NCBI GenBank assembly: GCA_024763275.1
Contig: JANTFT010000004.1
Coordinates: 25,774-89,773, forward strand
Direction: 5' to 3'
Length of the DNA: 64,000 nucleotides
Source of the DNA: Anaerolineales bacterium
GTDB taxonomy: Bacteria; Chloroflexota; Anaerolineae; Anaerolineales; UBA11858
Shown here in pieces: positions 4,421 through 45,694 of this stretch (positions within the stretch are counted from its first letter, which is position 1; every line of letters begins with the position of its first letter). Under the pieces are notes generated by a model. That model was given only the letters and a program-made list of their open reading frames with translations, did no database searches and was not told where the DNA came from. The position numbers and the translations under genes were made by a program.

Positions 4421-7400
4421 ATGGCTTCCCCCTTTAAGAGACATTTCCCCGTAATTCTTGCTGGAACGCTCCTGCTGGTGGCGGTCGTCACCCTCTCCTG
4501 CAATCTCCCGGCTGCACTGCAGGGAAAGCTTTTTGGATTAGGGGGGTCCCCCGCTCCCACTTTCCAGCCGACCAATACACCTCAGCCGCTCCCGCCCACG
4601 GTGGTGGAATCAGATCCCCCTCAGGGGAGCACCATTTCCCTGGAAGGCCCGATCACCATTTACTTCAATCAAGCCATGGACCAGGATTCAGTCCCCGGGG
4701 CTTTTTCCACTGACCCGCAGGTGCCGGGCTCGCTGGAGTGGATCGACCCGGCGACGGTCCGTTTCCAGCCCAGCGGGGAATTTCCAGCCGGGTCCTCGAT
4801 CCAGCTCCATTTCTCCCCATCTCTCAGCGCAGCTAACGGGCTGACTCTTTCCGGTGAGCTTGCTCTGCAGTACTACACCCCCGAGGAACTGGAACCGGTG
4901 ACCGCCCTGCCCTCACCTGACAGCACAGAGGTTGATCCCCTGTCAGCCATCGTGGTGGCTTTTAATCAGCCAGTGACCGCCCTGGGCGATGCTTTGAGTG
5001 AAGCCCCCCCGGCTTTCAGGGTCAGCCCGGCACCCGCCGGGCAGGGAGAGTGGATCAATCCCAGCACATATCAATTCTCTCCTGACCCCGGTCTCTCCGG
5101 GGGCACGACCTATCAGGTTGAACTTTCCTCGGATCTGGTCAGCACCTGGGGAACTGCTCTGGGAGACCAGGCTCCTCTCAGCTGGACCTTTTCCACCTCC
5201 TATCCCGAAGTGCTTGATTGGGAGCCCCATGATGGAGATGTCGGGGTCCCTCTGGACAAGACCATCCGGCTGAAATTCAATCAGGCTATGGACGCGGACA
5301 GTGTGGCGGAGCATTTTTCCCTTATCAAAGGAGATGGCTCAGCGGTCAACGGCACCTGGGAGTGGTCTGAGGATTTCCGGGAAGCCGAATTTACCGCGGA
5401 CGAGCTCCTGCTCCGGTGGAATAAATATTCCGCTGTTCTGCCAGCGGAAGCTTCTTCCGCAGCCGGAACCCCGCTGGGAGTGGATACCCAATTCGACTTC
5501 CAAACAACCGGGGAATTTCAGTTCCTGGGTACGCCCTCTGGATTGAATTACACCACCTCGATCTATGAGGGTGCCACGCTTTACTTCAACAATCCGGTCG
5601 ATCTTGAAACCGCCACAGAGAACATCAGCTTGACCCCGGAGGTGACGAACATCTGGCCCTCCACGGGGGGCAGTGGAAGTGTGCTCAATATTTACGGTGA
5701 TTTTGAGCCCCTGACGGACTACACTCTGACCTTGAAGGAACCGCTGGCCGATGTTTGGGGCAGCCAGCTGGGATCCGCCCGCACGATCCACTTCACCACA
5801 GAGGCCCTGCCGCCCAATTTGACGGTGACCCAGGGAAACAATATTCTGTTCCTGACCGGATCAGAGAACGCCCTTCCTGTCCGGATTACCAATGTCTATC
5901 AGGTAGCCATTAACGCCGGCAGCATTCCGCGGGACGCTATCCCGATGTTTTTTGGCCCGGGCTACTATACCAATCTGGATGATTACTACCCCCCGGATGT
6001 GCAGTACTGGAACGAGATCGTGAATGTGCCAGGAGATGACGTTTACAACATCAATTTGCCTCTCAACCAAACCGGGACACCGCTGGCCCCCGGCCTTTAC
6101 CGCTACCAGATCTATTCCCAGGAGATCCCTTACAATCCCTCTCCTTATTTGCTGGCGGTTAGCAATCTGCATCTGACCATGAAGACCAGTCCGGAGAACC
6201 TGCTGATATGGGCCCTGGATTTGGGGACAGGGGAAGGGGTCCCTGACGCGGAGATCACTGTCTATGATCAGACAGGCGGTGAGGTTTTCTCAGGAAAAAC
6301 GGACGCTGAGGGGATATTCCAGGCGGAATTCACCTCTCCCATTGACCTGTACGATAACGTCTTTTATGCCATTTCCGGGGAACCCGGACAGGCGGATTTT
6401 GGGATCACTGCCAGCAACTGGGCCTTTGGGACCGAAGCCTATAATTTTGGGTTGCCGTCCGATTACAACCCCCCCCAGGCCCAGACATATATTTATACGG
6501 ACCGCCCCATCTACCGGCCGGGTCAAACGGTTAATTACCGCCTGATCCAGCGGGACCGCCCTGGTGGTGGCTATGCTCTCCCCTCTGAGGATTCCATCAC
6601 GCTTTCCGTTTTCCAGGCTGGCTCTCAAGAACAACAGGTGACTTTACAGCTCTCAGAATACGGCACTGCGGATGGATCGTTTGCGCTTTCTCCCTATGCC
6701 CAGCCGGGGTATTACCGGCTGGAAACTGACTACGGTATGACCCTGTTTCAGGTGGCTGAATACCGCAAACCGGAAATCGATCTGGCTGTTTCCCTGGACA
6801 AAGAGCAGGCTTTGCTCGGGGACGATTGGCAGGGAAGTGTCCAGGCGCGCTATTATTTTGACGCTCCTGCCAGTGAGGTCAAATTGCTGTGGACTCTGCG
6901 GGCTGAACCAAATCCCTTTTATCTGTCTGGCTATCAGGTGGGAGTGCTTGACAGCAACTGGTTCACATACGGCGGTCTGTATTCCCCCATTCACTGGGGC
7001 CCCCGGGTGGCTGAAGGGGAAGCGCTGACTGACCAGAATGGATACTGGGAGCAGGAAGGACAGCTGACAGACCAGGATATTTACGATCGGGAAGTTCGCC
7101 TGCCGGCCAGATACATCCTCAGCGTCACTGCTGAAGATGAAAGCGGTTTTCAGGTCACAAACCAGGCTGAGATGCTGGTTCATCCCAGCGCGTTCTATAT
7201 CGGAGTTCACCCATCGGCCTGGATCGCTGAAGCTGGCCAGGAGGTGACATTTGACCTGCTGGCAGTGGACTGGGACAAACAGCCGGATGGAGTTCATGAC
7301 CTGCGGGCTGAGTTCAATAAAGTAACCTGGACTCATGAGGTTGGAGATATAGGCCAGATCGAATACACCCGGGAAAAAGAGCTCATCAGCGCCGAAGAGA

Positions 7401-10279
7401 TCTCCACAGACCAGGGGGGCAAGGCTGCGATCAGCTTTGTTCCCGAGGAACCCGGCACCTATCAGCTGGATGTGTTTGGTGGGGGTGCCCGCAGCGAAGT
7501 CACGCTCTGGGTTGGTGGGACCGGCACCCCTGTCTGGCCGACGCTGACCAATCAGAAGATCAGATTGATCGCCGATAAGGAAAACTACCAGCCCGGAGAT
7601 ACTGCCACCGTCTTTATTCCCAATCCTTTCCCGGATGGCGCCCAGGCGCTGATCACTACGGAAAGGCAGAGAGTGATTTCTTATCAGACCATGTCCCTCA
7701 CCGGGTCCGGACAGACAGTGGATATCGAACTAGATGACCAGGACGCTCCCAACGTTTACCTTTCAGTGACCCTGATCGGGAATGAACCCGGGGGCGGGAT
7801 CGGCTTCCGGCAGGGCTATCTCAACCTGCTGGTAGACCCCAGGGATAAAATCCTCCAAGTCGAGGTCATCGGAGAACCGCGGCGGGTTGGTCCCGGGGAG
7901 GAAGTTGAGTTCACCGTCCAGGTTACCGACCAGGATGGAAAGCCCCAGCAGGGTGAGTTTTCCCTGGCGGTCGTTGATAAGGCGGTCCTGGCTCTGGCAG
8001 ATCCCTATTCACCGGAGATCGGGGAAGCTTTTTACGGGGTCCAGCCTCTGTCAGTCCGGATGGGTTTTCCGCTGGGCCTGCACGCCGGCCTGATGGTCTT
8101 TGTTCCCGGTGGCTTAGGGGGCGGCGGAGGCGATGTGCCTGACTCCGTCCGGGAGCAGTTTGAGGATACTGCCTACTGGCAGGCTGATATCCAGACCGAT
8201 GAGAACGGCCTGGCGGTGGTGAGCGTGGTCCTGCCGGACAACCTGACCACCTGGCAGGCAGAAGCCCGCGGGGTGACCAAAGATACCGCAGTCGGCCAGG
8301 CAGATGCTGAAGTGATCACCACCAAAGAACTGCTGGTACGGCCGGTAACTCCCAGATTCCTGGTGGCCGGAGACCATCTGGTGCTGGCCGCGGTGGTACA
8401 CAATAACACGGCTGATGCCCTGACCGCGGATGTTTCCCTGCAGGGAAGCGGCTTGCTGCTGGATGCCCCGGAATTTTCAGTCCAGACCGTGGATGTGCCC
8501 GCCGGAGGAAGAGCGAGAGTGGAATGGTGGGTCACAGTAGAGGACACTGACCAGGCGGATATTCTCTTCACCGCTGAGGGGGGGGGACTGCAGGATGCCG
8601 TCAAGCCTTATCAGGGACCACTTCCGGTCCTGAGGTATCTGGCGCCGGTCAGCTTTGGAACTTCAGGAACCCTCGAACAGGCCGGCCACGAGCTGGAAAT
8701 CGTCAGTCTTCCCCGGACGTTCGATCCCTCTCAAGGCTCTCTGGATATCGAGCTTTCGCCTTCCCTGGCTGCTGTTGTATTAAACTCCCTCCAAGCACTT
8801 GAGGAGCGAGAACATTACTCCAACGAAGCTACCATGTCCTACTTCCTGCCTAATGTGGTCACCTACCAGACCTTGAAAGACCTGGACCTGGATTATCCCC
8901 TGCTGGAAAGCCGCCTGGACCGCGTGATACCGGAAACCCTGGCTGCCCTGGCAGCGGAACAGAATGAGGATGGCGGTTGGGGCTGGTGGAAAGGCGGAGC
9001 CAGCGATCCGGAGATCAGTTCATATATCCTGTTCGGGCTGCTTCAGGCCCAGCAGGCAGGCATGTTCGTGGACGAGCTGATGCTCCAGCAGGCCACCGGA
9101 TACCTGATGGCCACGCTGCCGGCGGTGGACATGTTGAGCGAGCCCCGGCAGTACAACCAGCTGGCCTTGAGATATTTTGCGCTGACGGAAGCCGGGATCA
9201 ACCTCAAGGCTGGCATGGAAGCCCTCGCTGAACTGGGGGGGGAGCTGGACCCTGGCTATCAAGCCCTGCTCGCGCTGGCTCTGGAAACCAACCAGTCTGA
9301 AAATGACTGGGCCCGCTCCCTGTTCTCAAATCTGGGAGGAAAGGGCATTCGCACGGCAACCGGCCTGCACTGGGAGAATTCCCCTGGCAGACATTCCTGG
9401 ATGAACAGCGATACTACCGCTACCGCCATGGTTGTTTACGCTCTGGCGAGAGCAGAAAATGCGCCGGAGCTGCTTCCTGAGGCTGTGCGCTATCTGATAT
9501 CCATGAAAACAGGGAAGGGAGATTGGTGGTCCCCTTACGAAACCAGCTGGTCCATCCTGGCCCTGAACGAGGTGCTTAAAAGAGGTGGAGAGCTGAGCAG
9601 CGATTTTGCATTCTCGGCTTCAGTGAACGGCCGTGAGCTGATAAAAGGTGCTGCTGAAGGGCCGGAGCATCTGGAAGCTGCCGCGGCGTCCCTTCCGATT
9701 GAGGACCTATACACGGCTGACCCCAATGCGCTGGTGATCAGCCGTACTGAGGGCAGCGGCTCCCTGTACTACAAAGCCCATCTGCTGGTTTATCAGCCGG
9801 CAGAGGATGTGCGGCCCTTTGGGAAGGGGCTGAGCCTTTCCCGGGTCTATACCAATTTAGGTGACGCGGGGAAATTTATCCAGTCAGGCCAGGCAGGCGA
9901 CCTGATCAAGGTCCAGCTTACCCTGGTCCTGGAAAACGACACTCATTACCTGATGGTCGAGGATTTCATCCCCTCCGGAGCTGAAATCCTGGATACCCGG
10001 CTGAAGACCTCCCGCCAGGATCTGGAAAGCTACCAGGCCTCTACTCCCTTCAGCGAGGGATGGGGCTGGTGGTATTTCAACGATCCCAGGGTACACGATG
10101 AGCGGGTCAGCTGGTCGGCCGATTACCTGCCTGCCGGCACCTATCAGATCACCTATCTGCTCTCGCTGACCCATCCAGGTGAATTCCAGGTGCTGCCGGC
10201 TCACGCCTGGCAGGCCTATTTCCCTGAAGTTCAAGCCATCAGCGCCGGCGACTTATTCGTTATAGAGGCCCAGAAATAG
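4421..10279 (+). CDS. alpha-2-macroglobulin family protein (large, lipobox-bearing, thioester motif absent)
   Basis: 1952 aa. Signal peptide ending VTLSC. N-terminal Big_5/SbsA-like Ig repeats (DPPQGSTISLEGPITIYFNQAMD). A2M core (TAYWQADIQTDENGLAVVSVVLPDNLTTWQAEARGVT). TED-like NEDGGWGWW. YSNEATMS occupies the place of the GC(G/L)EQ thioester site. Confidence 0.85.
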   Translation: MASPFKRHFPVILAGTLLLVAVVTLSCNLPAALQGKLFGLGGSPAPTFQPTNTPQPLPPTVVESDPPQGSTISLEGPITIYFNQAMDQDSVPGAFSTDPQVPGSLEWIDPATVRFQPSGEFPAGSSIQLHFSPSLSAANGLTLSGELALQYYTPEELEPVTALPSPDSTEVDPLSAIVVAFNQPVTALGDALSEAPPAFRVSPAPAGQGEWINPSTYQFSPDPGLSGGTTYQVELSSDLVSTWGTALGDQAPLSWTFSTSYPEVLDWEPHDGDVGVPLDKTIRLKFNQAMDADSVAEHFSLIKGDGSAVNGTWEWSEDFREAEFTADELLLRWNKYSAVLPAEASSAAGTPLGVDTQFDFQTTGEFQFLGTPSGLNYTTSIYEGATLYFNNPVDLETATENISLTPEVTNIWPSTGGSGSVLNIYGDFEPLTDYTLTLKEPLADVWGSQLGSARTIHFTTEALPPNLTVTQGNNILFLTGSENALPVRITNVYQVAINAGSIPRDAIPMFFGPGYYTNLDDYYPPDVQYWNEIVNVPGDDVYNINLPLNQTGTPLAPGLYRYQIYSQEIPYNPSPYLLAVSNLHLTMKTSPENLLIWALDLGTGEGVPDAEITVYDQTGGEVFSGKTDAEGIFQAEFTSPIDLYDNVFYAISGEPGQADFGITASNWAFGTEAYNFGLPSDYNPPQAQTYIYTDRPIYRPGQTVNYRLIQRDRPGGGYALPSEDSITLSVFQAGSQEQQVTLQLSEYGTADGSFALSPYAQPGYYRLETDYGMTLFQVAEYRKPEIDLAVSLDKEQALLGDDWQGSVQARYYFDAPASEVKLLWTLRAEPNPFYLSGYQVGVLDSNWFTYGGLYSPIHWGPRVAEGEALTDQNGYWEQEGQLTDQDIYDREVRLPARYILSVTAEDESGFQVTNQAEMLVHPSAFYIGVHPSAWIAEAGQEVTFDLLAVDWDKQPDGVHDLRAEFNKVTWTHEVGDIGQIEYTREKELISAEEISTDQGGKAAISFVPEEPGTYQLDVFGGGARSEVTLWVGGTGTPVWPTLTNQKIRLIADKENYQPGDTATVFIPNPFPDGAQALITTERQRVISYQTMSLTGSGQTVDIELDDQDAPNVYLSVTLIGNEPGGGIGFRQGYLNLLVDPRDKILQVEVIGEPRRVGPGEEVEFTVQVTDQDGKPQQGEFSLAVVDKAVLALADPYSPEIGEAFYGVQPLSVRMGFPLGLHAGLMVFVPGGLGGGGGDVPDSVREQFEDTAYWQADIQTDENGLAVVSVVLPDNLTTWQAEARGVTKDTAVGQADAEVITTKELLVRPVTPRFLVAGDHLVLAAVVHNNTADALTADVSLQGSGLLLDAPEFSVQTVDVPAGGRARVEWWVTVEDTDQADILFTAEGGGLQDAVKPYQGPLPVLRYLAPVSFGTSGTLEQAGHELEIVSLPRTFDPSQGSLDIELSPSLAAVVLNSLQALEEREHYSNEATMSYFLPNVVTYQTLKDLDLDYPLLESRLDRVIPETLAALAAEQNEDGGWGWWKGGASDPEISSYILFGLLQAQQAGMFVDELMLQQATGYLMATLPAVDMLSEPRQYNQLALRYFALTEAGINLKAGMEALAELGGELDPGYQALLALALETNQSENDWARSLFSNLGGKGIRTATGLHWENSPGRHSWMNSDTTATAMVVYALARAENAPELLPEAVRYLISMKTGKGDWWSPYETSWSILALNEVLKRGGELSSDFAFSASVNGRELIKGAAEGPEHLEAAAASLPIEDLYTADPNALVISRTEGSGSLYYKAHLLVYQPAEDVRPFGKGLSLSRVYTNLGDAGKFIQSGQAGDLIKVQLTLVLENDTHYLMVEDFIPSGAEILDTRLKTSRQDLESYQASTPFSEGWGWWYFNDPRVHDERVSWSADYLPAGTYQITYLLSLTHPGEFQVLPAHAWQAYFPEVQAISAGDLFVIEAQK

Positions 10280-10332
10280 AGGCTGTAACTATTTTTCAGC
10301 GGGAAACGTTTTAATCCCAGCAGCCCTGGACA

Positions 10333-10536
10333 TTAAAATCCAAAATGCAGCCAGTTAGTATTCAGGAGCACCTGGCAGGAAAGGGCGATGAAGACGATCA
10401 GCAGGATAAAACCGCACCCGCAGCCGGTGCAGGAGACCCCTCTTCCAAAACCAAAGGTTCTTTGAAGCCAATCAAAGAGCACGTCCAGCATCAATAGTTT
10501 GAATAAGCCTGCCAAACAGCCCTGACGATTATTCAC
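10333..10536 (-). CDS. hypothetical small Cys-rich membrane protein
   Basis: 67-aa reading frame from a GTG at 10536, preceded by AAGGAG (10549-10544) with a 7-nt spacer. C-terminal TM follows CTGCGCG. No recognised family. Confidence 0.3.
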   Translation of the reverse strand: MNNRQGCLAGLFKLLMLDVLFDWLQRTFGFGRGVSCTGCGCGFILLIVFIALSCQVLLNTNWLHFGF

Positions 10537-10706
10537 GAATAAACTCCTTTGTTCATTCAATGTTCATATACGTTTACGTCGGAGTATTCTAAAAGTTGCA
10601 GTTCAGGATTGGTGACAGCGGGAACTTGATTGCCCTGCTTATACCCAAACACCTAATAATTTGAGGTAAAAAGATACTGGAGATTTACCAGCCAGGAGGT
10701 AGATCC

Positions 10707-11114
10707 ATGAAAGAAATATCGCGAGAAAGCCGCGCAACGGTGATCCTGTATCTGATCCTGGCTTTTTTCGCCATCCCGCACCTGATCGACGATTTCCTTT
10801 ATGACATCCCGGCGGAATTCGGGATCTCTGTCCATTTGAGCCAGTTCCTGGCAGGGGTGTTCATCCTCATCTACCAGGGGATTATGATTCCCCTGGTCAG
10901 GGGGGCAAAGGCGGGTGTTTCTTCTGCAATAGGTATGGGGATCTTCCTGTCTCTGGCAGGAATCCTAAAACATATCCCTTTGATCATTCAGCCGGGCCCC
11001 TACTGGAGCGGCTGGTTCTCGGAAGGATTGATCTACGGTTTGATCCTCTCCGGGATCGGACTGGCCATTGCCGGGGTTCTGGCCTTGCGGGGTGGGGGAG
11101 GCCAGAACCAATAA
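10707..11114 (+). CDS. hypothetical integral membrane protein
   Basis: 135 aa with about four hydrophobic helices. SD GGAGG lies upstream of the ATG. Confidence 0.55.
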   Translation: MKEISRESRATVILYLILAFFAIPHLIDDFLYDIPAEFGISVHLSQFLAGVFILIYQGIMIPLVRGAKAGVSSAIGMGIFLSLAGILKHIPLIIQPGPYWSGWFSEGLIYGLILSGIGLAIAGVLALRGGGGQNQ

Positions 11115-17557: not shown

Positions 17558-17599
17558 ATCCAGGAAGCTGGACGGAGCAATAAGCTAAGGGAGTGGGAC

Positions 17600-18307
17600 A
17601 TGAAGACAATCGGACTGCTGGGAGGAATGAGCTGGGAGTCCTCCATTGAATATTACCGGATCATCAATCAGGAGGTCCGTTCTGCGCTGGGGGGAGTGCA
17701 TTCCGCCAAAATCGTGCTGGTTTCCCTGGATTTTACAGAAATAGAGGAGCTGCAGATGAAGGGGGATTGGGAAGGGGCCGCCCGGATCTTGATCCAGAGC
17801 GCCAGGGAAATCGAAAACGCCGGAGCTGATTTCCTGCTGATCTGCACCAATACCATGCATTTGCTGGCGGAGGAAGTGCAGGAAGCGGTCGATATTCCCC
17901 TGCTGCACATCGCAGATGCCACAGCCCGGGCGGTCAAGGGAGCCGGCCTGACCCGCGTGGGGCTGCTGGGGACCCGCTTCACCATGGAAAAGGACTTTTA
18001 CCGCGGCAGGCTGGAAAGGGAGCACCAGCTGGAGGTGATCGTACCGGAGAGGGCCGGGCGCGATCTGGTGCATAATGTGATCTATGATGAATTGGTCCAG
18101 GGGCTGATCAAGGACCGTTCCCGGCAGGGCTACCTGGAGGTAATCGGGAAATTGGTGAAAGAGGGCGCCGAGGGGATCGTGCTGGGCTGCACGGAGATCG
18201 GTTTGCTGATCAAGGAGGAAGACGTGGAGGTCCCTGTTTTCGATACCATGGAAATCCATGCCCGGGCGGCGGTTGATGCGGCTTTGGGGAGCTACAAGCT
18301 CGACTGA
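17600..18307 (+). CDS. aspartate/glutamate racemase family protein
   Basis: 235 aa. N-terminal IGLLGGMSWESSIEYY and a second catalytic region, GIVLGCTEIGLL. Confidence 0.85.
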   Translation: MKTIGLLGGMSWESSIEYYRIINQEVRSALGGVHSAKIVLVSLDFTEIEELQMKGDWEGAARILIQSAREIENAGADFLLICTNTMHLLAEEVQEAVDIPLLHIADATARAVKGAGLTRVGLLGTRFTMEKDFYRGRLEREHQLEVIVPERAGRDLVHNVIYDELVQGLIKDRSRQGYLEVIGKLVKEGAEGIVLGCTEIGLLIKEEDVEVPVFDTMEIHARAAVDAALGSYKLD

Positions 18308-18367
18308 GCGGGGCATCCTGTATAATGCTAACAACTGGCAGGAAATGGGAAGAGCCCGGGAGGAAGC

Positions 18368-18877
18368 ATGGATGAGGCTTACTTGAAACGACAGCTGGCG
18401 CTCAACCGCGACCGGGTCGCGGCGCTGGCTCGCGGTGTCCCTGAAGAACAGCAGCGCTGGAAGCCGGATCCAGACTCCTGGTCTATCCTGGAAGTCGTCT
18501 GCCACCTGGCGGACGAGGAAGAGTTCGATTTCCCTGTCCGGCTGAGGATAATCCTGGAAGAATCTGAAAAACCCTGGCCAACCATCGACCCTGACAGCTG
18601 GTTTGAGGAGCATGAGTACCACAAGGCAGAGCTCTACGAAACCTTAAGCCGGTATATGAACCTCCGCAATGCAGCCCTGGCCTGGCTCAACGCTCTGGAA
18701 CCCCCGGACTGGAGCGGGGTGTATCAGACGCCCTTTGGGGAAATGACTGCAGGGGATGTGTTTGCTTCCTGGGCGGCGCATGATTTGCTGCACCTGTGTC
18801 AGCTGGTTGAGCTGCAGCGCCAGTACCTGGTCGAGCAGGCCAAACCCTACCGGCTTGATTACGCCGGGGAGTGGTGA
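18368..18877 (+). CDS. DinB-family protein
   Basis: 169 aa. Four-helix DinB pattern with His triad candidates (VCHLADEE ... HDLLHL). Confidence 0.8.
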   Translation: MDEAYLKRQLALNRDRVAALARGVPEEQQRWKPDPDSWSILEVVCHLADEEEFDFPVRLRIILEESEKPWPTIDPDSWFEEHEYHKAELYETLSRYMNLRNAALAWLNALEPPDWSGVYQTPFGEMTAGDVFASWAAHDLLHLCQLVELQRQYLVEQAKPYRLDYAGEW

Positions 18878-19025: not shown

Positions 19026-20093
19026 TTATTTGATGGTGATCTCGTTCCCTTCGACAACCTCACCGATCACCCAAACTGGTTGATCCTTTTTATTTGCCTG
19101 GGCCCGGAACTCGTCCAGCCGGTCGCTGTTGACCGCTAGCAGCAGGCCGCCGCTGGTCTGGGGGTCAAAGAGCAGCATCAGCTCCCCTTCCGACAGGGAT
19201 TTGGGCGCTTTGATGTGGTCGCCGAAAAACAGGCGGTTATCAAAGGCGCCTCCCGGGAAGCTGAACTGCCTGGCATATTCCTTCGCGGGGCTGATGAAGG
19301 GGATCATGTCCCAGTAGATATTCAAACCGACCCTGGAAGCCTCGGCCATCTCCCAGGCATGGCCAAGCAGGCCGAATCCTGTGATATCGGTGGCTCCTTT
19401 AACTCCGTGGGACTGAGCCAGCTCACTGGCTGTGCGGTTGAGCTGTTTCATCCACAGCACAGCCTCAGCGACATGTTCCGGGGAGGCGATCTGGTTTTTC
19501 AGGGCTGTGGTGGTTGTGCCAAAGCCCAGCGGCTTGGTGATCACCAGGGCATCGCCGGGATGGGCGGCGGCTTTGGTCATGATCAGGTCAGGGTGGGCGA
19601 AACCCAGGCAGATCAACCCGTATTTGGGTTCCTGGTCCTGGATGGTGTGGCCGCCCGCTATCACCACCCCGGCTTCCAGGGCTTTTTCAGCCCCGCCCCG
19701 CAGGATCTCTCCAGAGATCTCGGTGGGAAGGTTGGGGGGCAGAGCCGCGATATTCAAGGCCAGGAAGGGCGACCCGCCCATAGCATAGATATCCGACAGA
19801 CTGTTGGCCGCGGAGATCGTGCCGAAGTCGTAGGGGTCATCCACTACCGGCGTGAAAAAATCCGTGGTGACGATCAGAGCCCGGTCGTCATCCAGCAGCC
19901 AGACAGCGGCATCGTCCGGCTCTCCCAGGCCTACCAGGAGATCGGGAAAATTCTTTTGGTCGTAAAGGCCTTCCAGGGGGCGCAGGACCTGCGCCAGCGC
20001 TTCCGCGCTTAATTTGGACGCTCAACCAGCGCAGCTGGAAAGAGCGGTGAGTCGGATTTCCCGTCCGGAAGGTTTCGGTTCTTTATTCGTCAT
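19026..20093 (-). CDS. selD: selenide, water dikinase (selenophosphate synthetase) with in-frame UGA selenocysteine codon at 20024..20022
   Basis: The track ORF (19026-19844) continues in frame upstream through a single TGA to an ATG at 20093: [37 protein letters not shown]... This matches the E. coli SelD N-terminus IRLTQYSHGAGC17GCK20ISPKVLETIL. TTDFF..V.D.P.DFG and AMGG motifs follow. Confidence 0.85.
19979..20009 (-). promoter_or_regulatory. candidate bacterial SECIS hairpins downstream of the selD UGA
   Basis: On the mRNA, AGCGC-GGAA-GCGCU sits 13-26 nt after UGA. GGCGCAG-GUC-CUGCGCC sits 27-43 nt after UGA. Both have G at the start of the apical loop. Confidence 0.5.
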
Positions 20094-20281
20094 ATGGTTA
20101 TCTGTTCCTGCCTGATCAGTACTGATGAAATTCTATCATACCAGCAAGTTTGACGCTGGACGGATGGGATTCTGCGGGCAGCATTCCAACAGCTCTCGCT
20201 GCCTTCGGCTTTCATTCTGGCTCCAGCAAAAAACTGCCCGGATTCCCGGGCAGTTTGCTATGTGTGATTTAGAGAAGCTCT

Positions 20282-21295
20282 TTAGGGAGCCAGCTCAGGC
20301 AGCGGCAGCAGGTAAGGGTTGTCGTTGGGGACCAGCATTACATCGATGCCCGGAGCGAGTTTTTCAATATAGCGGTAGTTCAGCAGCATGGGATTCTCAG
20401 TCAGCACATCGGCGATCAGCTGCAGGGCTTCCGCTTCGGCTTTGGCATTGATCACCGTGGCTTCGGCTTCTCCCTCGGCTTCGATGATGGCAGCGTCTTT
20501 GACACCTTCTGCTACCTGGCGGGCCTGCTCGGCTTCCTGCCGGCGCTGTTCCACGATGTATTCAGCCTGCTGGGCCAGCTGTTCTGCGATCTGCTTCTGC
20601 TCGATCGAGGCGGCATATTCGGGGGTGAAGGTGATATTGCGGAGCACGAAGTTTGAGAGGATCAGTCCGTTCTCTTCCATCTCGGCTGCCATTGTCTTTT
20701 CAATCTGAGTCTTCAGCTCTTCCCGCTTGGTGCTGTAGACCTCGTTGACCCGGAACTGGGAAACAGCATCGCGGATCACGCCCCGCACAGTCGGCCGGAC
20801 CAGACCGTCCACGTAGCGGTCCTGCCAGATGATATGCACGTCCAGAACATGCGCGGGATCCAGAGAAAAGATGATCGAGGCATCGATGTAGACTTCCTGA
20901 CCATCCGCGGTGCGGGCGGCAATGGAGTCATCCCCCTGGATCTCGCCTTCCTGGTGGGCAATGGACATGGTATAGGTGTTCTTCGAGATCGAGTAGATCT
21001 TAACATTTTCAGCGTAAGGGATCACCCAGTGCAGCCCGGGCTGGAGGACATCCTCCCGGTACCCTTTGGGGGCGACGGCGCTGATGACCACCCCGCGTTC
21101 CTGGGGCTGGATGAAGACCAGGCCGGCGCTGACTGAGCTGAAGAGCACAGCGACTGCGGCGGAAATGAAGATCCCGGTTATCGTGCCGCGGGTCTTCTTG
21201 CTCTGACGGGCGCGGACCACGGATAGAGCCAGAAAGGCCACAACCAGCAGCCAAGAAAAAGCCGCCAATGCTGAGACCAGAATAGTGATTTGCAT
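20282..21295 (-). CDS. SPFH/band-7 (prohibitin/HflK-C-like) membrane protein
   Basis: N-terminal TM, SPFH core, and C-terminal coiled coil EAEGEAEATVINAKAEAEA. I placed the start at the ATG at 21295 because the TTG at 21307 lies inside the GGAGGA SD. Confidence 0.85.
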   Translation of the reverse strand: MQITILVSALAAFSWLLVVAFLALSVVRARQSKKTRGTITGIFISAAVAVLFSSVSAGLVFIQPQERGVVISAVAPKGYREDVLQPGLHWVIPYAENVKIYSISKNTYTMSIAHQEGEIQGDDSIAARTADGQEVYIDASIIFSLDPAHVLDVHIIWQDRYVDGLVRPTVRGVIRDAVSQFRVNEVYSTKREELKTQIEKTMAAEMEENGLILSNFVLRNITFTPEYAASIEQKQIAEQLAQQAEYIVEQRRQEAEQARQVAEGVKDAAIIEAEGEAEATVINAKAEAEALQLIADVLTENPMLLNYRYIEKLAPGIDVMLVPNDNPYLLPLPELAP

Positions 21296-21437
21296 CTTTT
21301 CCTCCAATTTGGAAATATGTATTAATTGATCATGGTTCGTTCTTCGCTTAATTATATCCGCATCAGAAGCGCCCTGAGCTGCCAGACAGGGTTCTTATAA
21401 CATATTTACGGGGCTTGTGGTACAGTTTGGTTTTAAT

Positions 21438-25329: not shown

Positions 25330-26133
25330 TCAGCCCTGTTTCCGGGCGAAAAAGATCAGCTCACCCGGGTAGGTTGAGCCCAGGGGGTTCTTATCATAAT
25401 CAGCGAATATATCCAGCACCTCGAAGCCGCAGCGAGCCAGCAAATGTTCCGCTTCGTAGCGGAACAGGTAGCGCATCGGAAAGGCGTAGACAATGCGCTC
25501 CTTCCGCCCATTGGGATGCCGCAGGTAGTAGATCAGCTCCACGTCCAGAACCTGGTTAAAAAGATCCCGGGCAGCGACCTTGTCCCGGCGCCGCACCTTG
25601 ATGCCATCAGGGGTTGTGAATTCGGGTCCAGAATCCATTTCCTGCCCCAGATCATCTGCCGAGAGATGTTTCAGCGAGGGATTGAAGATATCCAGGATGA
25701 AGGTTCCGTCTGGTTCAAGATGGCGGTGGATGTTTTCCAGGCAGCGAATCTGGTCTTCCGTGGTAATCAGGTGCTGGAAGGGGCGGAAAGGAGTGGTGAC
25801 CAGGGCGAATTTCCTGCCAAGATCAAAATCGCGCATATCTCCCTGTATCAGATCCACCCGTTCCTGGACTTCCCTGGATTCTTTTTTCAGGGCATCCCGG
25901 CAAACATCCAGCATATATTCTGACAGGTCCAACCCTGTGATCGGGATCCCCGCCCGGGCGGTGGGCAGCAGCACCCGTCCGGTACCGCAGCCTACTTCCA
26001 GCACAGGGCCACCGGATTTAAGAGCGGCTTTCACAAACATTTTTACATCCGGCCGATCCCGATAGGGGCCGAACTGGTCATAGAGCTGGGCTACAAGGGG
26101 ATTGGATTGGTAACCGCCAGTATCCTGTGACAT
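25330..26133 (-). CDS. class I SAM-dependent methyltransferase
   Basis: 267 aa. SAM motif I VLEVGCGTGR. Confidence 0.85.
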   Translation of the reverse strand: MSQDTGGYQSNPLVAQLYDQFGPYRDRPDVKMFVKAALKSGGPVLEVGCGTGRVLLPTARAGIPITGLDLSEYMLDVCRDALKKESREVQERVDLIQGDMRDFDLGRKFALVTTPFRPFQHLITTEDQIRCLENIHRHLEPDGTFILDIFNPSLKHLSADDLGQEMDSGPEFTTPDGIKVRRRDKVAARDLFNQVLDVELIYYLRHPNGRKERIVYAFPMRYLFRYEAEHLLARCGFEVLDIFADYDKNPLGSTYPGELIFFARKQG

Positions 26134-26853: not shown

Positions 26854-28131
26854 CTATCTCGGCCCGATCACTTCGACCCCGCCCATCCAGGGGCGCAGCA
26901 CTTCAGGAATTACCACAGAGCCATCCTCCTGCTGGTTATTCTCTAGGACGGCGATCAGCACCCGCGGCAGCCCCAGGGCGGATCCGTTGAGGGTGTGCAC
27001 AAAGCGGGTGCCCTTGCCGCCTTCCGGGCGGTAGCGGATCGCTGCCCGGCGGGCCTGAAAATCCCGCACGTTGGATACCGAGGAAACCTCCAGCCACTCC
27101 TGGCAGCCGGCTGCCCAGACCTCAATGTCAGCTGTGTAGGAAGCCGCGAAGCCCAGATCGCCGGTGCATTGATTCATCACCCGGTAAGGCAGGCCCAGCA
27201 GCTGGCAGATTCTCTCGGCGTTCTCAAGCATGCGTTCGAACTGGCTTTCCGAGTCCTCCGGTTTGCAGAAGACATACATTTCCACTTTGTCAAACTGGTG
27301 GCCGCGTTTGATGCCGCGGACTTCCCGGCCGGCGCTGAACTTTTCGCGCCGGAAGCAGGGTGTGTAAGCGGTGTAGGAGATCGGGAGGTCGCCTTCCTCC
27401 AGAATCTCGTCTTTATGGAGGCTGGTCAAGGGTACCTCGGCTGTGGGCACCCACCAGAAATCCTCCTCATGGTCATGATAGAGGTTGTCGCCAAATTTTG
27501 GCAGCTGGCCGGAAGCGTAGACTACCTCTTCCTTAACCATAAAGGGAGTATAGCGCTCCTCGTAACCGTGTTTGGTGATAGTGTCCAGCATGAAGCTTAT
27601 CAGAGCCCGCTGCAGCCGGGCGCCGGGGCCGTTTAGGACATAAAAGCGAGTTCCCGAAAGCTTTACACCCCGCTCAAAGTCCAGTATGCCCAGAGCTGGT
27701 CCTATATCCCAGTGCGGCCGGGGTTCGAAGTCAAATTCTGGTTTATCCCCCACCGTTTTGACAACCTGATTTTCGCTGTCGTCAGCGCCCACGGGAACTC
27801 GCTCATCGGGCAGATTGGGGAAGGTGCCCAGCAGCGCTCCCAGGGCAGGCTCCAGTTCTGCCAGCTCTTTTTCCAGCGCGTCCAGCTGATCGCCCAGGGC
27901 GCGCATTGCGGTAATTCTTTCCTGGCGCTGGTCAGGGTCCTTGCTTTGACCGATCTCCTTAGAGGCCTGGTTCTTCTCGGCCCGCAGGGATTCTACCTGC
28001 TGCAGCAGACCCCGGCGTAGCAGGTCCATTTCGATCACCTGATCAACCGCTTCTGTTCCCTGGTGGCGCCTGGCCAAGCCTTCCCGCACCAGATCGGGAT
28101 GATCCCGGAATAATTGAATATCTAACATCAC
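26854..28131 (-). CDS. serS: serine--tRNA ligase
   Basis: 425 aa. N-terminal coiled-coil arm and class II motifs (FRREKFSAGREVRGIKRGHQF, GSALGLPRVLIAVLE). Confidence 0.95.
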   Translation of the reverse strand: MMLDIQLFRDHPDLVREGLARRHQGTEAVDQVIEMDLLRRGLLQQVESLRAEKNQASKEIGQSKDPDQRQERITAMRALGDQLDALEKELAELEPALGALLGTFPNLPDERVPVGADDSENQVVKTVGDKPEFDFEPRPHWDIGPALGILDFERGVKLSGTRFYVLNGPGARLQRALISFMLDTITKHGYEERYTPFMVKEEVVYASGQLPKFGDNLYHDHEEDFWWVPTAEVPLTSLHKDEILEEGDLPISYTAYTPCFRREKFSAGREVRGIKRGHQFDKVEMYVFCKPEDSESQFERMLENAERICQLLGLPYRVMNQCTGDLGFAASYTADIEVWAAGCQEWLEVSSVSNVRDFQARRAAIRYRPEGGKGTRFVHTLNGSALGLPRVLIAVLENNQQEDGSVVIPEVLRPWMGGVEVIGPR

Positions 28132-32600: not shown

Positions 32601-32972
32601 ATGAGTGATAAGTACAGGGATCTAACCCCTGAAGAGCAATATGTGATCCTGGGAAAGGGAACGGAAAGACCTTTTACAGGAGAATATGACGCCTTTTTCG
32701 AAAAGGGCAGCTACCACTGCCGGCAGTGCGGAGCACTGCTTTACCGCTCAGGTGATAAATTCAGATCCGGCTGCGGCTGGCCCAGCTTTGACGATGAGGT
32801 GGAGGGCGCGGTCACCCGGGTGCCGGACGCTGATGGACGGCGGACGGAGATTCTCTGCGCTAACTGCGGCGGGCATCTGGGCCATGTTTTCATCGGGGAG
32901 GAACTGACGCCCAAGAACACCCGCCACTGCGTGAATTCGATCTCCCTGGTCTTCAAACCGGAGAGTGAGTGA
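32601..32972 (+). CDS. msrB: peptide-methionine (R)-S-oxide reductase
   Basis: 123 aa. CxxC...CxxC zinc site and catalytic RHCVNS. Confidence 0.9.
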
Positions 32973-33457
32973 TGGAAGCTAAAAAAGCCTATTTCGCCGG
33001 GGGCTGTTTCTGGGGAGTGGAGCATCTTTTCCAGGGAAAACCAGGGGTGGTGGAGGCGGTGTCTGGTTATATGGGGGGAAAGATGGAGAATCCCACCTAT
33101 GAGCAGGTTTGTTCAAAAACTACCGGACACCTGGAGACTGTCGAGGTCACTTACGATCCCGAACAGATCAGCTACGAAGAGCTGGCCAGATATTTCTTCG
33201 AGATCCATGACCCCACCCAGGCGGATGGCCAGGGGCCGGACATCGGTCCCCAGTACCTGTCGGCCGTGTTCTACTCCACTGCAGAAGAGCGGGAAATTGC
33301 CGAGAAGCTGATCGAGATCCTGAAAGGGAAAGGCTACCCGGTCATTACCAAATTGGTCCCCGCGGATAAATTCTGGGAGGCGGAAGATTACCACCAGGAT
33401 TACTACATCAGGAAGAATCAGCAGCCCTACTGCCACCGCTACCAGAGCAGGTTCTAG
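32972..33457 (+). CDS. msrA: peptide-methionine (S)-S-oxide reductase
   Basis: Catalytic GGCFWG near the N-terminus. The ATG overlaps the msrB TGA (TGATG); a GTG at 32969 is an alternative start. Confidence 0.9.
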   Translation: MEAKKAYFAGGCFWGVEHLFQGKPGVVEAVSGYMGGKMENPTYEQVCSKTTGHLETVEVTYDPEQISYEELARYFFEIHDPTQADGQGPDIGPQYLSAVFYSTAEEREIAEKLIEILKGKGYPVITKLVPADKFWEAEDYHQDYYIRKNQQPYCHRYQSRF

Positions 33458-44249: not shown

Positions 44250-44449
44250 CAGAAACTCCTCTCTGGTAGGCTGGATGGGTTTCCCCGCAGGAGAGCCGGG
44301 TTACATCTTGATGGGCCAAAGGAGATAAAGCTTACTTGAAGTGGATAATTTTAGAGTAAAGATCCCATCTGGCAGCCACTTCCCGGGTAAGAGATTGACA
44401 GGCTGGCTTATCGGAAAGGCGGTAATACTTTGCGATCATGGGAGGATCA

Positions 44450-45694
44450 ATGGCAGTAATTCCTGAAATCACCGTCTACGGGGCCTACTGGTGCCCGGAC
44501 TGCAGCCGCAGCAAACAATTTTTAGGTGAACATCAGATTCCTTACAACTGGGTAGATATCGAGGCCGATCCAGAGGGAGAGGGTTATGTGGTTTCTAAAA
44601 ATGGGGGCAAGAGAATTATCCCGACAATTGAGTTCCCGGATGGGTCCATCCTGGTGGAACCCAGCAACGCTGAACTGGCCCAAAAACTGGGGTTGAAAAC
44701 AGTTGCTGAAAAAAGCCATTATGATCTGATCGTGCTGGGTGGAGGGCCGGCGGGGCTGACCGCGGCGCTGTATACAGCCAGGGAAGGGGTAGACACCCTG
44801 GTAATTGAGCGGGCCGCACTGGGCGGCCAGGCGGCCACGACCCAGTGGCTGGATAATGTCCCTGGATTTTCAGAGGGCATTTCCGGGGCCGACTTTTCCG
44901 GCCAGCTTCAGAAGCAGATTGAGCGCTTTGGGGCCGAACTGCTCCAGGCGCAGGATGTGGTCGGGATTCACAGCCACAGCAATTATCACTGCGTGACCAC
45001 AGCCGACGGCAGCGAATACAGCGCCCGGGCCCTGTTGATCGCCACCGGCAGCCGCTACCGTTTGTTGAATGTGCCTGGCGAAGATGATTTCCTGGGGGCG
45101 GGGATCCATTTTTGCGCCACCTGTGACGGTGTGTTCTACAAGGGGCAGGCGGTCGCTGTGGTTGGCGGTGGCAACAGCGCCACTGAGGAAAGCCTTTTCC
45201 TGACTCGATTCGTTGATCAGGTGACCCTGTTAGTGCGTGAACCTGAGCTGATAGCCAGCCAGATCCTCCAGGATAAGGTCCTCTCCCATCCTCAGATAGA
45301 GGTCCTCTTCAACACGGAAATAGAGAGATTTAACGGCCCGGGAGGGAAGTTGGAGTCAGTCCTCATCAAGAACAATCAAACTGGCGCGGTCAAGGAGATC
45401 ACTCCGGCCGGAGTGTTCATTTTTATCGGCCAGATGCCCAACACTTCCTTCCTGGCCGATTCTGGCGTCCTGCTGGACCGTTGGAAATTCATCGTCACCG
45501 GACACGACCTGGTGCATGACCGGGATGACCTGCCCGGGTTTGAAACACGAGAGCCAGCTGTCCTGGAAACCAGCGTCCCGGGGATTTTTAGCGCCGGCGA
45601 TGTGCGGGCAGGCAGCACAAAACAGGTGGCTTCCGCGGCAGGAGAAGGAGCTACCGCCGCGCTGCTGATCCGGGAATACCTGAAGAGCGTTTAG
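44450..45694 (+). CDS. glutaredoxin-like domain fused to thioredoxin-disulfide reductase
   Basis: N-terminal YGAYWCPDC thioredoxin-fold domain, followed by LGGGPAGLTAA FAD motif, CATCDG redox centre and GGGNSA NADPH motif. The ATG at 44450 follows GGGAGGA. Confidence 0.85.
   Translation: MAVIPEITVYGAYWCPDCSRSKQFLGEHQIPYNWVDIEADPEGEGYVVSKNGGKRIIPTIEFPDGSILVEPSNAELAQKLGLKTVAEKSHYDLIVLGGGPAGLTAALYTAREGVDTLVIERAALGGQAATTQWLDNVPGFSEGISGADFSGQLQKQIERFGAELLQAQDVVGIHSHSNYHCVTTADGSEYSARALLIATGSRYRLLNVPGEDDFLGAGIHFCATCDGVFYKGQAVAVVGGGNSATEESLFLTRFVDQVTLLVREPELIASQILQDKVLSHPQIEVLFNTEIERFNGPGGKLESVLIKNNQTGAVKEITPAGVFIFIGQMPNTSFLADSGVLLDRWKFIVTGHDLVHDRDDLPGFETREPAVLETSVPGIFSAGDVRAGSTKQVASAAGEGATAALLIREYLKSV

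Follow-up and report, generated by a model that had tools for sequence, protein, structure and literature searches.

A selD gene with an in-frame UGA at its catalytic codon, predicted to encode a selenocysteine-containing selenophosphate synthetase, in an Anaerolineales contig

Introduction

The question raised by the selD locus described here is whether an in-frame TGA near the 5' end of the gene ends translation, reflects an error, or encodes selenocysteine (Sec). The locus (19026..20093, minus strand) lies in a stretch of 64,000 nucleotides, hereafter the window, taken from positions 25,774 to 89,773 of contig JANTFT010000004.1 (Anaerolineales bacterium, assembly GCA_024763275.1); all coordinates are those of the window. 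An initial annotation, made from the letters and a program-made list of open reading frames (ORFs), had proposed a UGA-recoded selenoprotein gene that the ORF list had shortened by 83 codons. The analysis reported below leads to the same view: the region is, with high confidence, a Sec-encoding selD whose catalytic residue is Sec, specified by the UGA at 20024..20022.

Reading frame and gene calls

The minus strand was read directly in the selD frame, which runs from ATG (20093..20091) through 23 sense codons to TGA (20024..20022), and on through 331 sense codons to TAA (19028..19026). The TGA, at codon 24, is the only internal stop of this frame; reading the strand bore out the initial annotation on this point, and the translation that it quoted was correct letter for letter. 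The features of the coding region are as follows:

19026..20093, minus strand: full-length selD coding sequence, 355 sense codons with TGA taken as Sec at codon 24, and TAA at 19028..19026.
20022..20024, minus strand: in-frame UGA, predicted Sec codon (Sec24), counterpart of Cys17 of E. coli SelD.
20013..20015, minus strand: AAA, Lys27, equivalent of the essential Lys20 of E. coli SelD.
19026..19844, minus strand: truncated ORF of 272 aa obtained by ordinary ORF or gene calling, with a GTG start that is codon 84.
20106..20109, minus strand: AGGA, possible ribosome-binding site, 12 nt upstream of the ATG at 20093.

The assignments of start site and ribosome-binding site are putative and made from the sequence. 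For selD, the mechanical ORF list gave only 19026..19844, and the loss of 83 codons is exact, the GTG start being codon 84. Ordinary callers treat the UGA as a stop codon and begin again at the following GTG; this is how the 272-aa fragment came to be the form held in public databases: the public protein P0007 is exactly this truncated call.

Identity of the product and position of the UGA

For profile searches of the 355-residue product, the TGA was scored as Cys (U->C). The product matched the selD profile TIGR00476 with 355.7 bits (cutoff 125, E 2e-106), residues 14-324 covering profile positions 1-309, and scored 341.8 bits against NF002098 (cutoff 299). The AIRS (PF00586) and AIRS_C (PF02769) domains were found with 91.8 and 89.8 bits, respectively. 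Against proteins of known structure, E. coli SelD (3u0o) was matched with E 1.5e-68 (query 11-348 to chain 4-336) and Aquifex aeolicus SelD (2yye/2zod) with E 9e-66. The assignment of the gene to selD is therefore upheld by both profiles, above their curated equivalog cutoffs, and by the presence of both domains; on this homology the gene is predicted to encode selenide,water dikinase (selenophosphate synthetase), which would synthesize selenophosphate in an ATP-dependent reaction.

The N-terminal alignment to 3u0o is free of gaps and places codon 24 on Cys17 and Lys27 on Lys20, so that the UGA codon corresponds to the catalytic Cys and the essential Lys follows at +3, as had been claimed from the sequence. 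Lys occupies this position in all 74 aligned Sec-type sequences described below. The upstream extension is homologous in its own right: when residues 1-83 alone were compared with the PDB, the sole match was E. coli SelD (3u0o, E 1.3e-7, 11-83 to 4-73). The 83 codons missing from the ORF list are thus homologous to SelD N-termini, with Cys17 aligned at the TGA.

Orthologues that are full-length in the databases carry Cys at the same site. They read ...SSCAGCASKL..., against ...SSCAG*ASKL... in the window, and the full-length proteins P0100, P0104 and P0120 have ...CAGCASKL... or ...CAGCAAKL....

Conservation of the TGA

If the TGA arose in sequencing or assembly, or by a recent nonsense mutation, the result would be either a pseudogene or a shorter protein made from GTG 19844, and the public databases do hold the 272-aa call alone. 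A second assembly, the relatives and the codon-position entropies around the TGA all speak against such an origin. Over 3105 bp, TGA included, the Logan assembly of SRR19843167 (L081) does not differ from the window; it possibly derives from the read set of the window genome itself and is to be read as an independent assembly, not as independent data. A scan with one genome per species returned 80 loci at 52-79% identity, almost all in metagenome-assembled genomes (MAGs) of Anaerolineae or other Chloroflexota, the closest being labelled 'uncultured Anaerolineales bacterium'. At the aligned codon, 78 of the 80 have TGA, and the other two have TGC (L041) and TGT (L046), an agreement much greater than could arise by chance. 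The concern about sequencing error voiced in the initial annotation was in this way addressed indirectly, through the same TGA in the L081 assembly and in 78 of 80 related species.

The same pattern was seen among database proteins. The 120 nearest proteins in a collection of 5.8 billion share 62-84% identity with the query, apart from the window's own call at 100%. Nearly all are 272-334 aa long, and these short calls cover 77-92% of the query and all begin just past the position of the UGA.

The segment before the TGA evolves as coding sequence. In the 74 aligned Sec-type sequences, the 11 codons preceding the TGA specify the conserved peptide I-R-L-T-x-L-S-x-C-A-G. The third positions of codons -11 to -1 have entropies of 1.0-1.95 bits, and the first and second positions of the conserved codons are near 0; this indicates that the segment upstream of the TGA is translated in the selD frame, under purifying selection. 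Coding constraint is found on both sides of the UGA. A product started at codon 84 would lose the catalytic Sec/Lys loop together with the conserved DDAAV and TTDFF segments. Within the window, TGA also terminates 17 of 46 long ORFs; it is an ordinary stop there, and the codon is therefore not reassigned. Sequencing error, pseudogene formation and codon reassignment are all very unlikely explanations, and an erroneous or recently mutated TGA in particular is barely credible.

A conserved RNA hairpin downstream of the UGA

Two hairpins can be drawn in the coding sequence that follows the UGA:

19996..20009, minus strand: hairpin 1, AGCGC-GGAA-GCGCU, beginning 12 nt past the UGA and present in the minimum free energy (MFE) fold.
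19979..19995, minus strand: hairpin 2, GGCGCAG-GUC-CUGCGCC, 17 nt with a 7-bp stem, beginning 26 nt past the UGA.

Comparative analysis was carried out on alignment A2, which comprises the 63 nt from the TGA onward in the 74 Sec-type sequences and contains no gaps. Columns 30-46 of A2 read G GCG CAG GUN CUG CGC C and correspond to 19995..19979 of the window. RNAalifold predicted the helix of hairpin 2, and no other, both with the full set and with a divergent subset of 22 sequences. In its 7-bp version the helix has 94.4% standard pairs over the 74 sequences. At pair 31-45, 45 sequences have G-C, 13 have G-U and 8 have A-U; wherever Ala is replaced by Thr (GCG to ACG, eight cases), CGC has become CGU as well, which restores this pair. 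At pair 36-40, 60 sequences have G-C and 4 have A-U (CAA...UUG), and pairs 32-44 and 35-41 each show one double change. G37 and U38 of the loop are invariant (74/74). The covariation score of the whole structure was higher than in any of 500 column shuffles and in any slid control, although a control of this kind is permissive for related sequences.

The codon-level entropy test is more telling than the shuffle control. Codons within the stem have third-position entropies of 0.10 (Leu +9), 0.18 (Ala +10) and 0.00 bits (Leu +13). The third positions of codons outside the stem vary freely: 1.90 bits for the loop codon Val +12, 1.97 bits for Pro +15, which lies just outside the stem, and 1.67 bits for Ala +1, upstream of the hairpin. 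Hairpin 2 is thus constrained at the RNA level and shows covariation.

The hairpin also tracks the identity of codon 24. All seven pairs are present in 58 of the 74 Sec-type sequences, and three to five of the seven in the four Cys-type orthologues compared (L041, L046, L084, L085), every one of which lacks the loop GU. The encoded peptide, L-A-Q-V-L-R-P (A2 columns 28-48, window 19997-19977), is almost invariant in Sec-type SelD, and the Cys-type orthologues are relaxed at this place, with LAKILAP, LRELLQP, LADLLRP and LVELLKP. The conservation of L-A-Q-V-L-R-P appears to be the protein-level footprint of the RNA hairpin.

A G is said to stand at the start of the apical loop in the bSECIS model of the bacterial Sec insertion sequence (SECIS), and the loop of hairpin 2, GUN, starts with G. 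The loop GU lies at +37/+38 counted from the U of the UGA, and the spacing of 33 nt between UGA and loop falls inside the range of 16-37 nt given for bacterial SECIS elements (PMC10778597). From these comparisons, hairpin 2 is probably the SelB-binding SECIS of the gene.

Two further observations concern this part of the gene. The selD of L064 (UBA4081) is broken by runs of N around 10001-10954, and its TGA and hairpin 2 are still readable. A three-way junction, closed in the MFE fold by a lower stem (UCCA/UGGA) around both hairpins, was considered and rejected, its columns being neither conserved nor covarying in the relatives.

Points that weigh against the assignment, and the role of hairpin 1

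Several results weigh against a Sec-encoding selD with hairpin 2 as its SECIS. None of selA, selB and tRNA-Sec was found in the 64 kb of the window or in the flanking 10 kb at either end (L082, L083). In the whole window, no Rfam family reached its gathering threshold (all 4227 families, SECIS included), and a search of 19900-20120 at E<=10 returned only CrfA at E 9.1, which is noise. As a single sequence, hairpin 2 has an unexceptional folding energy (-12.1 kcal/mol, z -1.9), and longer stretches around the hairpins fold at z -0.8 and -1.4; the energy being unremarkable, the case for hairpin 2 rests on the comparative evidence. Compared with G23/U24 in the SECIS of E. coli fdhF, the GU loop of hairpin 2 is 14 nt more distant from the UGA. 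Finally, hairpin 1 is nearer the UGA and could be the true SelB site.

This last point was considered as an explanation of its own, in which the gene is still a Sec-encoding selD, hairpin 1 is the functional SECIS and candidate SelB site, and hairpin 2 is kept for ribosome pausing, mRNA stability or an auxiliary role. The position of hairpin 1 is in its favour. Its loop, about 20 nt from the UGA as in the canonical E. coli arrangement, begins 17 nt past the UGA, near the fdhF G23/U24 and within the range of 16-37 nt (PMC10778597); the bSECISearch prediction in BSepDB for the SelD of Acetomicrobium also places the SECIS at the position of hairpin 1 (PMC13326102). A subgroup of 22 more distant sequences has Pro at +6; here a 4-bp helix, shifted in register, reaches 77.3% pairing, and three of its four pairs show compensatory double changes.

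As one fixed helix, hairpin 1 had to be rejected: its register shifts between subgroups. In the register of the window, 71.6% of cells are paired across the relatives, and the N-A-E-T subgroup retains just a 3-bp version, GCG-GAAA-CGC. Folds of the individual sequences scatter without a single consistent structure (mean z -1.2), RNAalifold never predicts the helix, and its loop has no invariant GU. Hairpin 1 is also largely kept in the Cys form L084 and is therefore not specific to Sec. The stronger covariation, the suppression of synonymous changes and the GU loop all belong to hairpin 2. A SECIS at hairpin 1 is accordingly judged unlikely. Hairpin 1 coincides with a variable segment of 14 nt between the UGA and hairpin 2, and it may be a spacer, an auxiliary stem or itself a SECIS.

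The GU of hairpin 2 is exactly 14 nt farther out than that of fdhF, and 14 nt is likewise the length of the hairpin-forming segment in between. With this segment set aside, a linear spacer of 12 nt is left between the UGA and hairpin 2, where E. coli has 11 nt. Any meaning given to the coincidence would be speculative. One tentative reading, which we regard as rather doubtful, is that the selD SECIS of Anaerolineae-type Chloroflexota consists of two modules: an invariant, SelB-binding hairpin with an fdhF-like GCAGGUC loop, displaced by 14 nt from its E. coli position through a variable spacer that itself folds into a small hairpin and so brings the effective spacing to 12 nt. If true, it would be a distinct SECIS architecture, which standard models, or a SelB with E. 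coli geometry, might not accommodate.

Selenocysteine machinery and decoding of the UGA

For the Sec machinery, Pfam annotation of the window did not find selA, selB, selU or fdhA, and ARAGORN found no tRNA in the window. The genes selA, selB and selC presumably lie elsewhere in the genome, as the initial annotation had supposed.

A relative with the same hairpin, L073, has the whole set beside selD: selD with its TGA is followed by tRNA-Sec (called by ARAGORN; RF01852, 67.7 bits), selA (TIGR00474, 494 bits) and selB (TIGR00475, 281.5 bits). The selD of L073 keeps hairpin 2 through an A-U double change. This cluster shows Sec machinery in a relative and lends indirect support to the supposition that such genes lie elsewhere in the genome of the window.

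The absence of selA, selB and selC from the 84 kb examined would also fit a UGA decoded without Sec machinery, by near-cognate read-through (Trp or Cys) or under a reassigned code, giving a Cys- or Trp-containing, or low-abundance, SelD. A reassigned code is at odds with the ordinary use of TGA as a stop in the window, described above. Read-through is hard to reconcile with a conserved, covarying hairpin with an invariant GU that follows the UGA in the TGA forms only, with the alternation of UGA and Cys at the catalytic Cys, which is the signature of Sec, and with the gene cluster of L073. Decoding without Sec machinery is considered highly improbable.

Sec insertion itself, and the binding of SelB to hairpin 2, we infer from these comparisons. 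In the mechanism proposed, a stem-loop formed by the mRNA within the coding sequence would recruit the Sec-specific elongation factor SelB, with its Sec-tRNA(Sec), when the ribosome arrives at the UGA; hairpin 2 (19995..19979), with its invariant loop GU, is the best candidate for this stem-loop. Sec would then be inserted instead of termination, to give an enzyme of 355 residues with Sec in its N-terminal glycine-rich loop. As SelD makes the selenium donor for Sec-tRNA(Sec), the enzyme would depend on its own product.

Other observations on the Sec genes were as follows. The MAG that contains the compact selD(TGA)-tRNA-Sec-selA-selB cluster of L073 (10001-14376) bears the label 'uncultured Spirochaetales bacterium', yet the SelD of the cluster falls among those of Chloroflexota and has their hairpin; either the contig was mis-binned or mis-classified, or the Sec trait as a whole may have been transferred horizontally. 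In L040, ARAGORN called a 95-nt 'tRNA-Cys(aca)' (4514-4608, minus strand) at the contig end, some 120 nt downstream from selD. Its length resembles that of tRNA-Sec; it was considered as a mis-called tRNA-Sec and rejected, since Rfam finds no tRNA there, and the call is probably false. In the window, serS, encoding seryl-tRNA synthetase, lies at 26854-28131 (minus strand), about 7 kb from selD. SerRS catalyses the first step of Sec-tRNA(Sec) synthesis and is the product of a housekeeping gene; the proximity was not read as meaningful.

Genomic neighbourhood and transcription of selD

Upstream of selD lies a Band_7/HflK-like gene (20282..21307, minus strand), which is ended by an intrinsic terminator:

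20228..20253, minus strand: intrinsic terminator CUGCCCGG-GAAU-CCGGGCAG followed by U6, with a GC-rich stem of 8-9 bp (-23.4 kcal/mol, z -4.2).

With the Band_7 gene terminated at 20253..20228, selD forms its own transcription unit. A consensus scan for a sigma-70-type promoter at selD found none, and a consensus terminator scan of the same region missed the terminator at 20228-20253.

The Band_7/HflK-like gene lies directly upstream of selD in the window and in L081 (both Sec-type), and likewise in L084 and L085 (both Cys-type). The last two are therefore true orthologues, and the shared synteny across Sec and Cys loci indicates that the switch between Sec and Cys took place in situ. The neighbours of selD in the window are otherwise unrelated to it: besides the Band_7/HflK-like protein, they comprise a BshB-like deacetylase, VanW-like and DinB/YfiT-like proteins, an Fe-alcohol dehydrogenase and an aldehyde:ferredoxin oxidoreductase.

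Other open reading frames of the window

For the selenoprotein search, every stop-to-stop frame with one or two TGAs was listed and five TGA-split ORF pairs were translated. This yielded no further selenoprotein gene split by a TGA in the window; the members of all five pairs appear to be separate adjacent genes. Two pairs were assigned by eye (hypothetical and SMP-30-like; DUF547-like and sigma-factor-like) and three with Pfam (GNAT and DegV; GNAT and Asp/Glu racemase; YhhN and a short ORF). A search of the window for the hairpin 2 motif returned no further copy.

Two members of families that include selenoproteins in other bacteria were present as uninterrupted, Cys-type ORFs: MsrA (32969-33457, plus strand) and a glutaredoxin-fused pyridine-nucleotide-disulfide oxidoreductase (44438-45694, plus strand). 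At 17585-18622 (minus strand), the longest local ORF (345 aa) has no family match, and the shorter ORF antisense to it (17600-18307, plus strand, 235 aa) is a clear Asp/Glu racemase (PF01177, 158.6 bits), so a track built on the longest ORF would choose the wrong strand. The window also encodes a bacterial alpha-2-macroglobulin-like protein of 1952 aa (4421-10279, plus strand), with the domains Big_5, MG2, bMG3, bMG6, A2M_BRD, A2M, TED and bMG10.

Significance for annotation

The immediate consequence is a correction of annotation: this selD and nearly all of its approximately 100 closest database relatives are stored in truncated form, without the catalytic loop. In metabolic reconstructions of the Anaerolineae MAGs concerned, SelD is consequently broken, and the selenocysteine trait may go unnoticed. 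Where SelD has a Sec codon, the other UGA-interrupted ORFs of the genome also deserve to be checked for selenoproteins. The clade-wide alignment provides a SECIS hairpin supported by covariation, which could seed a covariance model for selenoprotein genes of Chloroflexota.

Comparison with known systems

No bacterial selenoproteins are more widespread than SelD and FdhA, and selenoproteins were listed for the Chloroflexi as early as 2006 (PMC1794560). The initial annotation had called Sec-containing SelD an autoregulatory hallmark of selenium-utilising organisms; this was overstated, as maintenance of the Sec trait for the sake of a self-supporting SelD is put forward only as a hypothesis in the literature (PMC1794560).

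The window gene shares with the Sec-containing bacterial SelD proteins (PMC1794560, BSepDB) the family, the domain architecture, the UGA in the catalytic loop and the Lys at +3. An in-ORF stem-loop right past the UGA and mis-annotation by N-terminal truncation are likewise common to both (PMC13326102). Aquifex aeolicus SelD is one Sec-containing example, the structures 2zod/2yye being those of a Cys mutant. Nothing essential differs between these proteins and the window copy, which comes from an uncultured Anaerolineales-like member of the Chloroflexota, and whose conserved hairpin is farther from the UGA than the hairpin predicted for Acetomicrobium SelD. E. coli SelD (3u0o) has a colinear catalytic loop with Lys20 conserved, and differs in having Cys (TGC) at the site of the UGA and Cys19 where the window has Ser26; Cys21, at -3 from Sec24, is a further difference on the side of the window protein.

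For the RNA element, the sequence of the E. coli fdhF SECIS was confirmed by its match, at 100% identity, to fdhF of more than 5400 E. coli genomes. Its hairpin reportedly starts 11 nt past the UGA and has GU at +23/+24 and a bulged U. The 17-nt upper stem-loop of fdhF, GGUUGCAGGUCUGCACC, and hairpin 2, GGCGCAGGUCCUGCGCC, have GCAGGUC in common, with GU in the apical loop; both are 17-nt hairpins located within an ORF. Unlike the fdhF element, hairpin 2 starts 26 nt past the UGA, has its GU at +37/+38 in a perfect 7-bp stem-loop without a bulge, and is preceded by a separate, variable hairpin-forming segment of 14 nt. The greater distance of the loop from the UGA is the sole, mild oddity of the locus, which is otherwise that of a well-known and often mis-annotated selenoprotein, biologically ordinary and with nothing unexpected in it.

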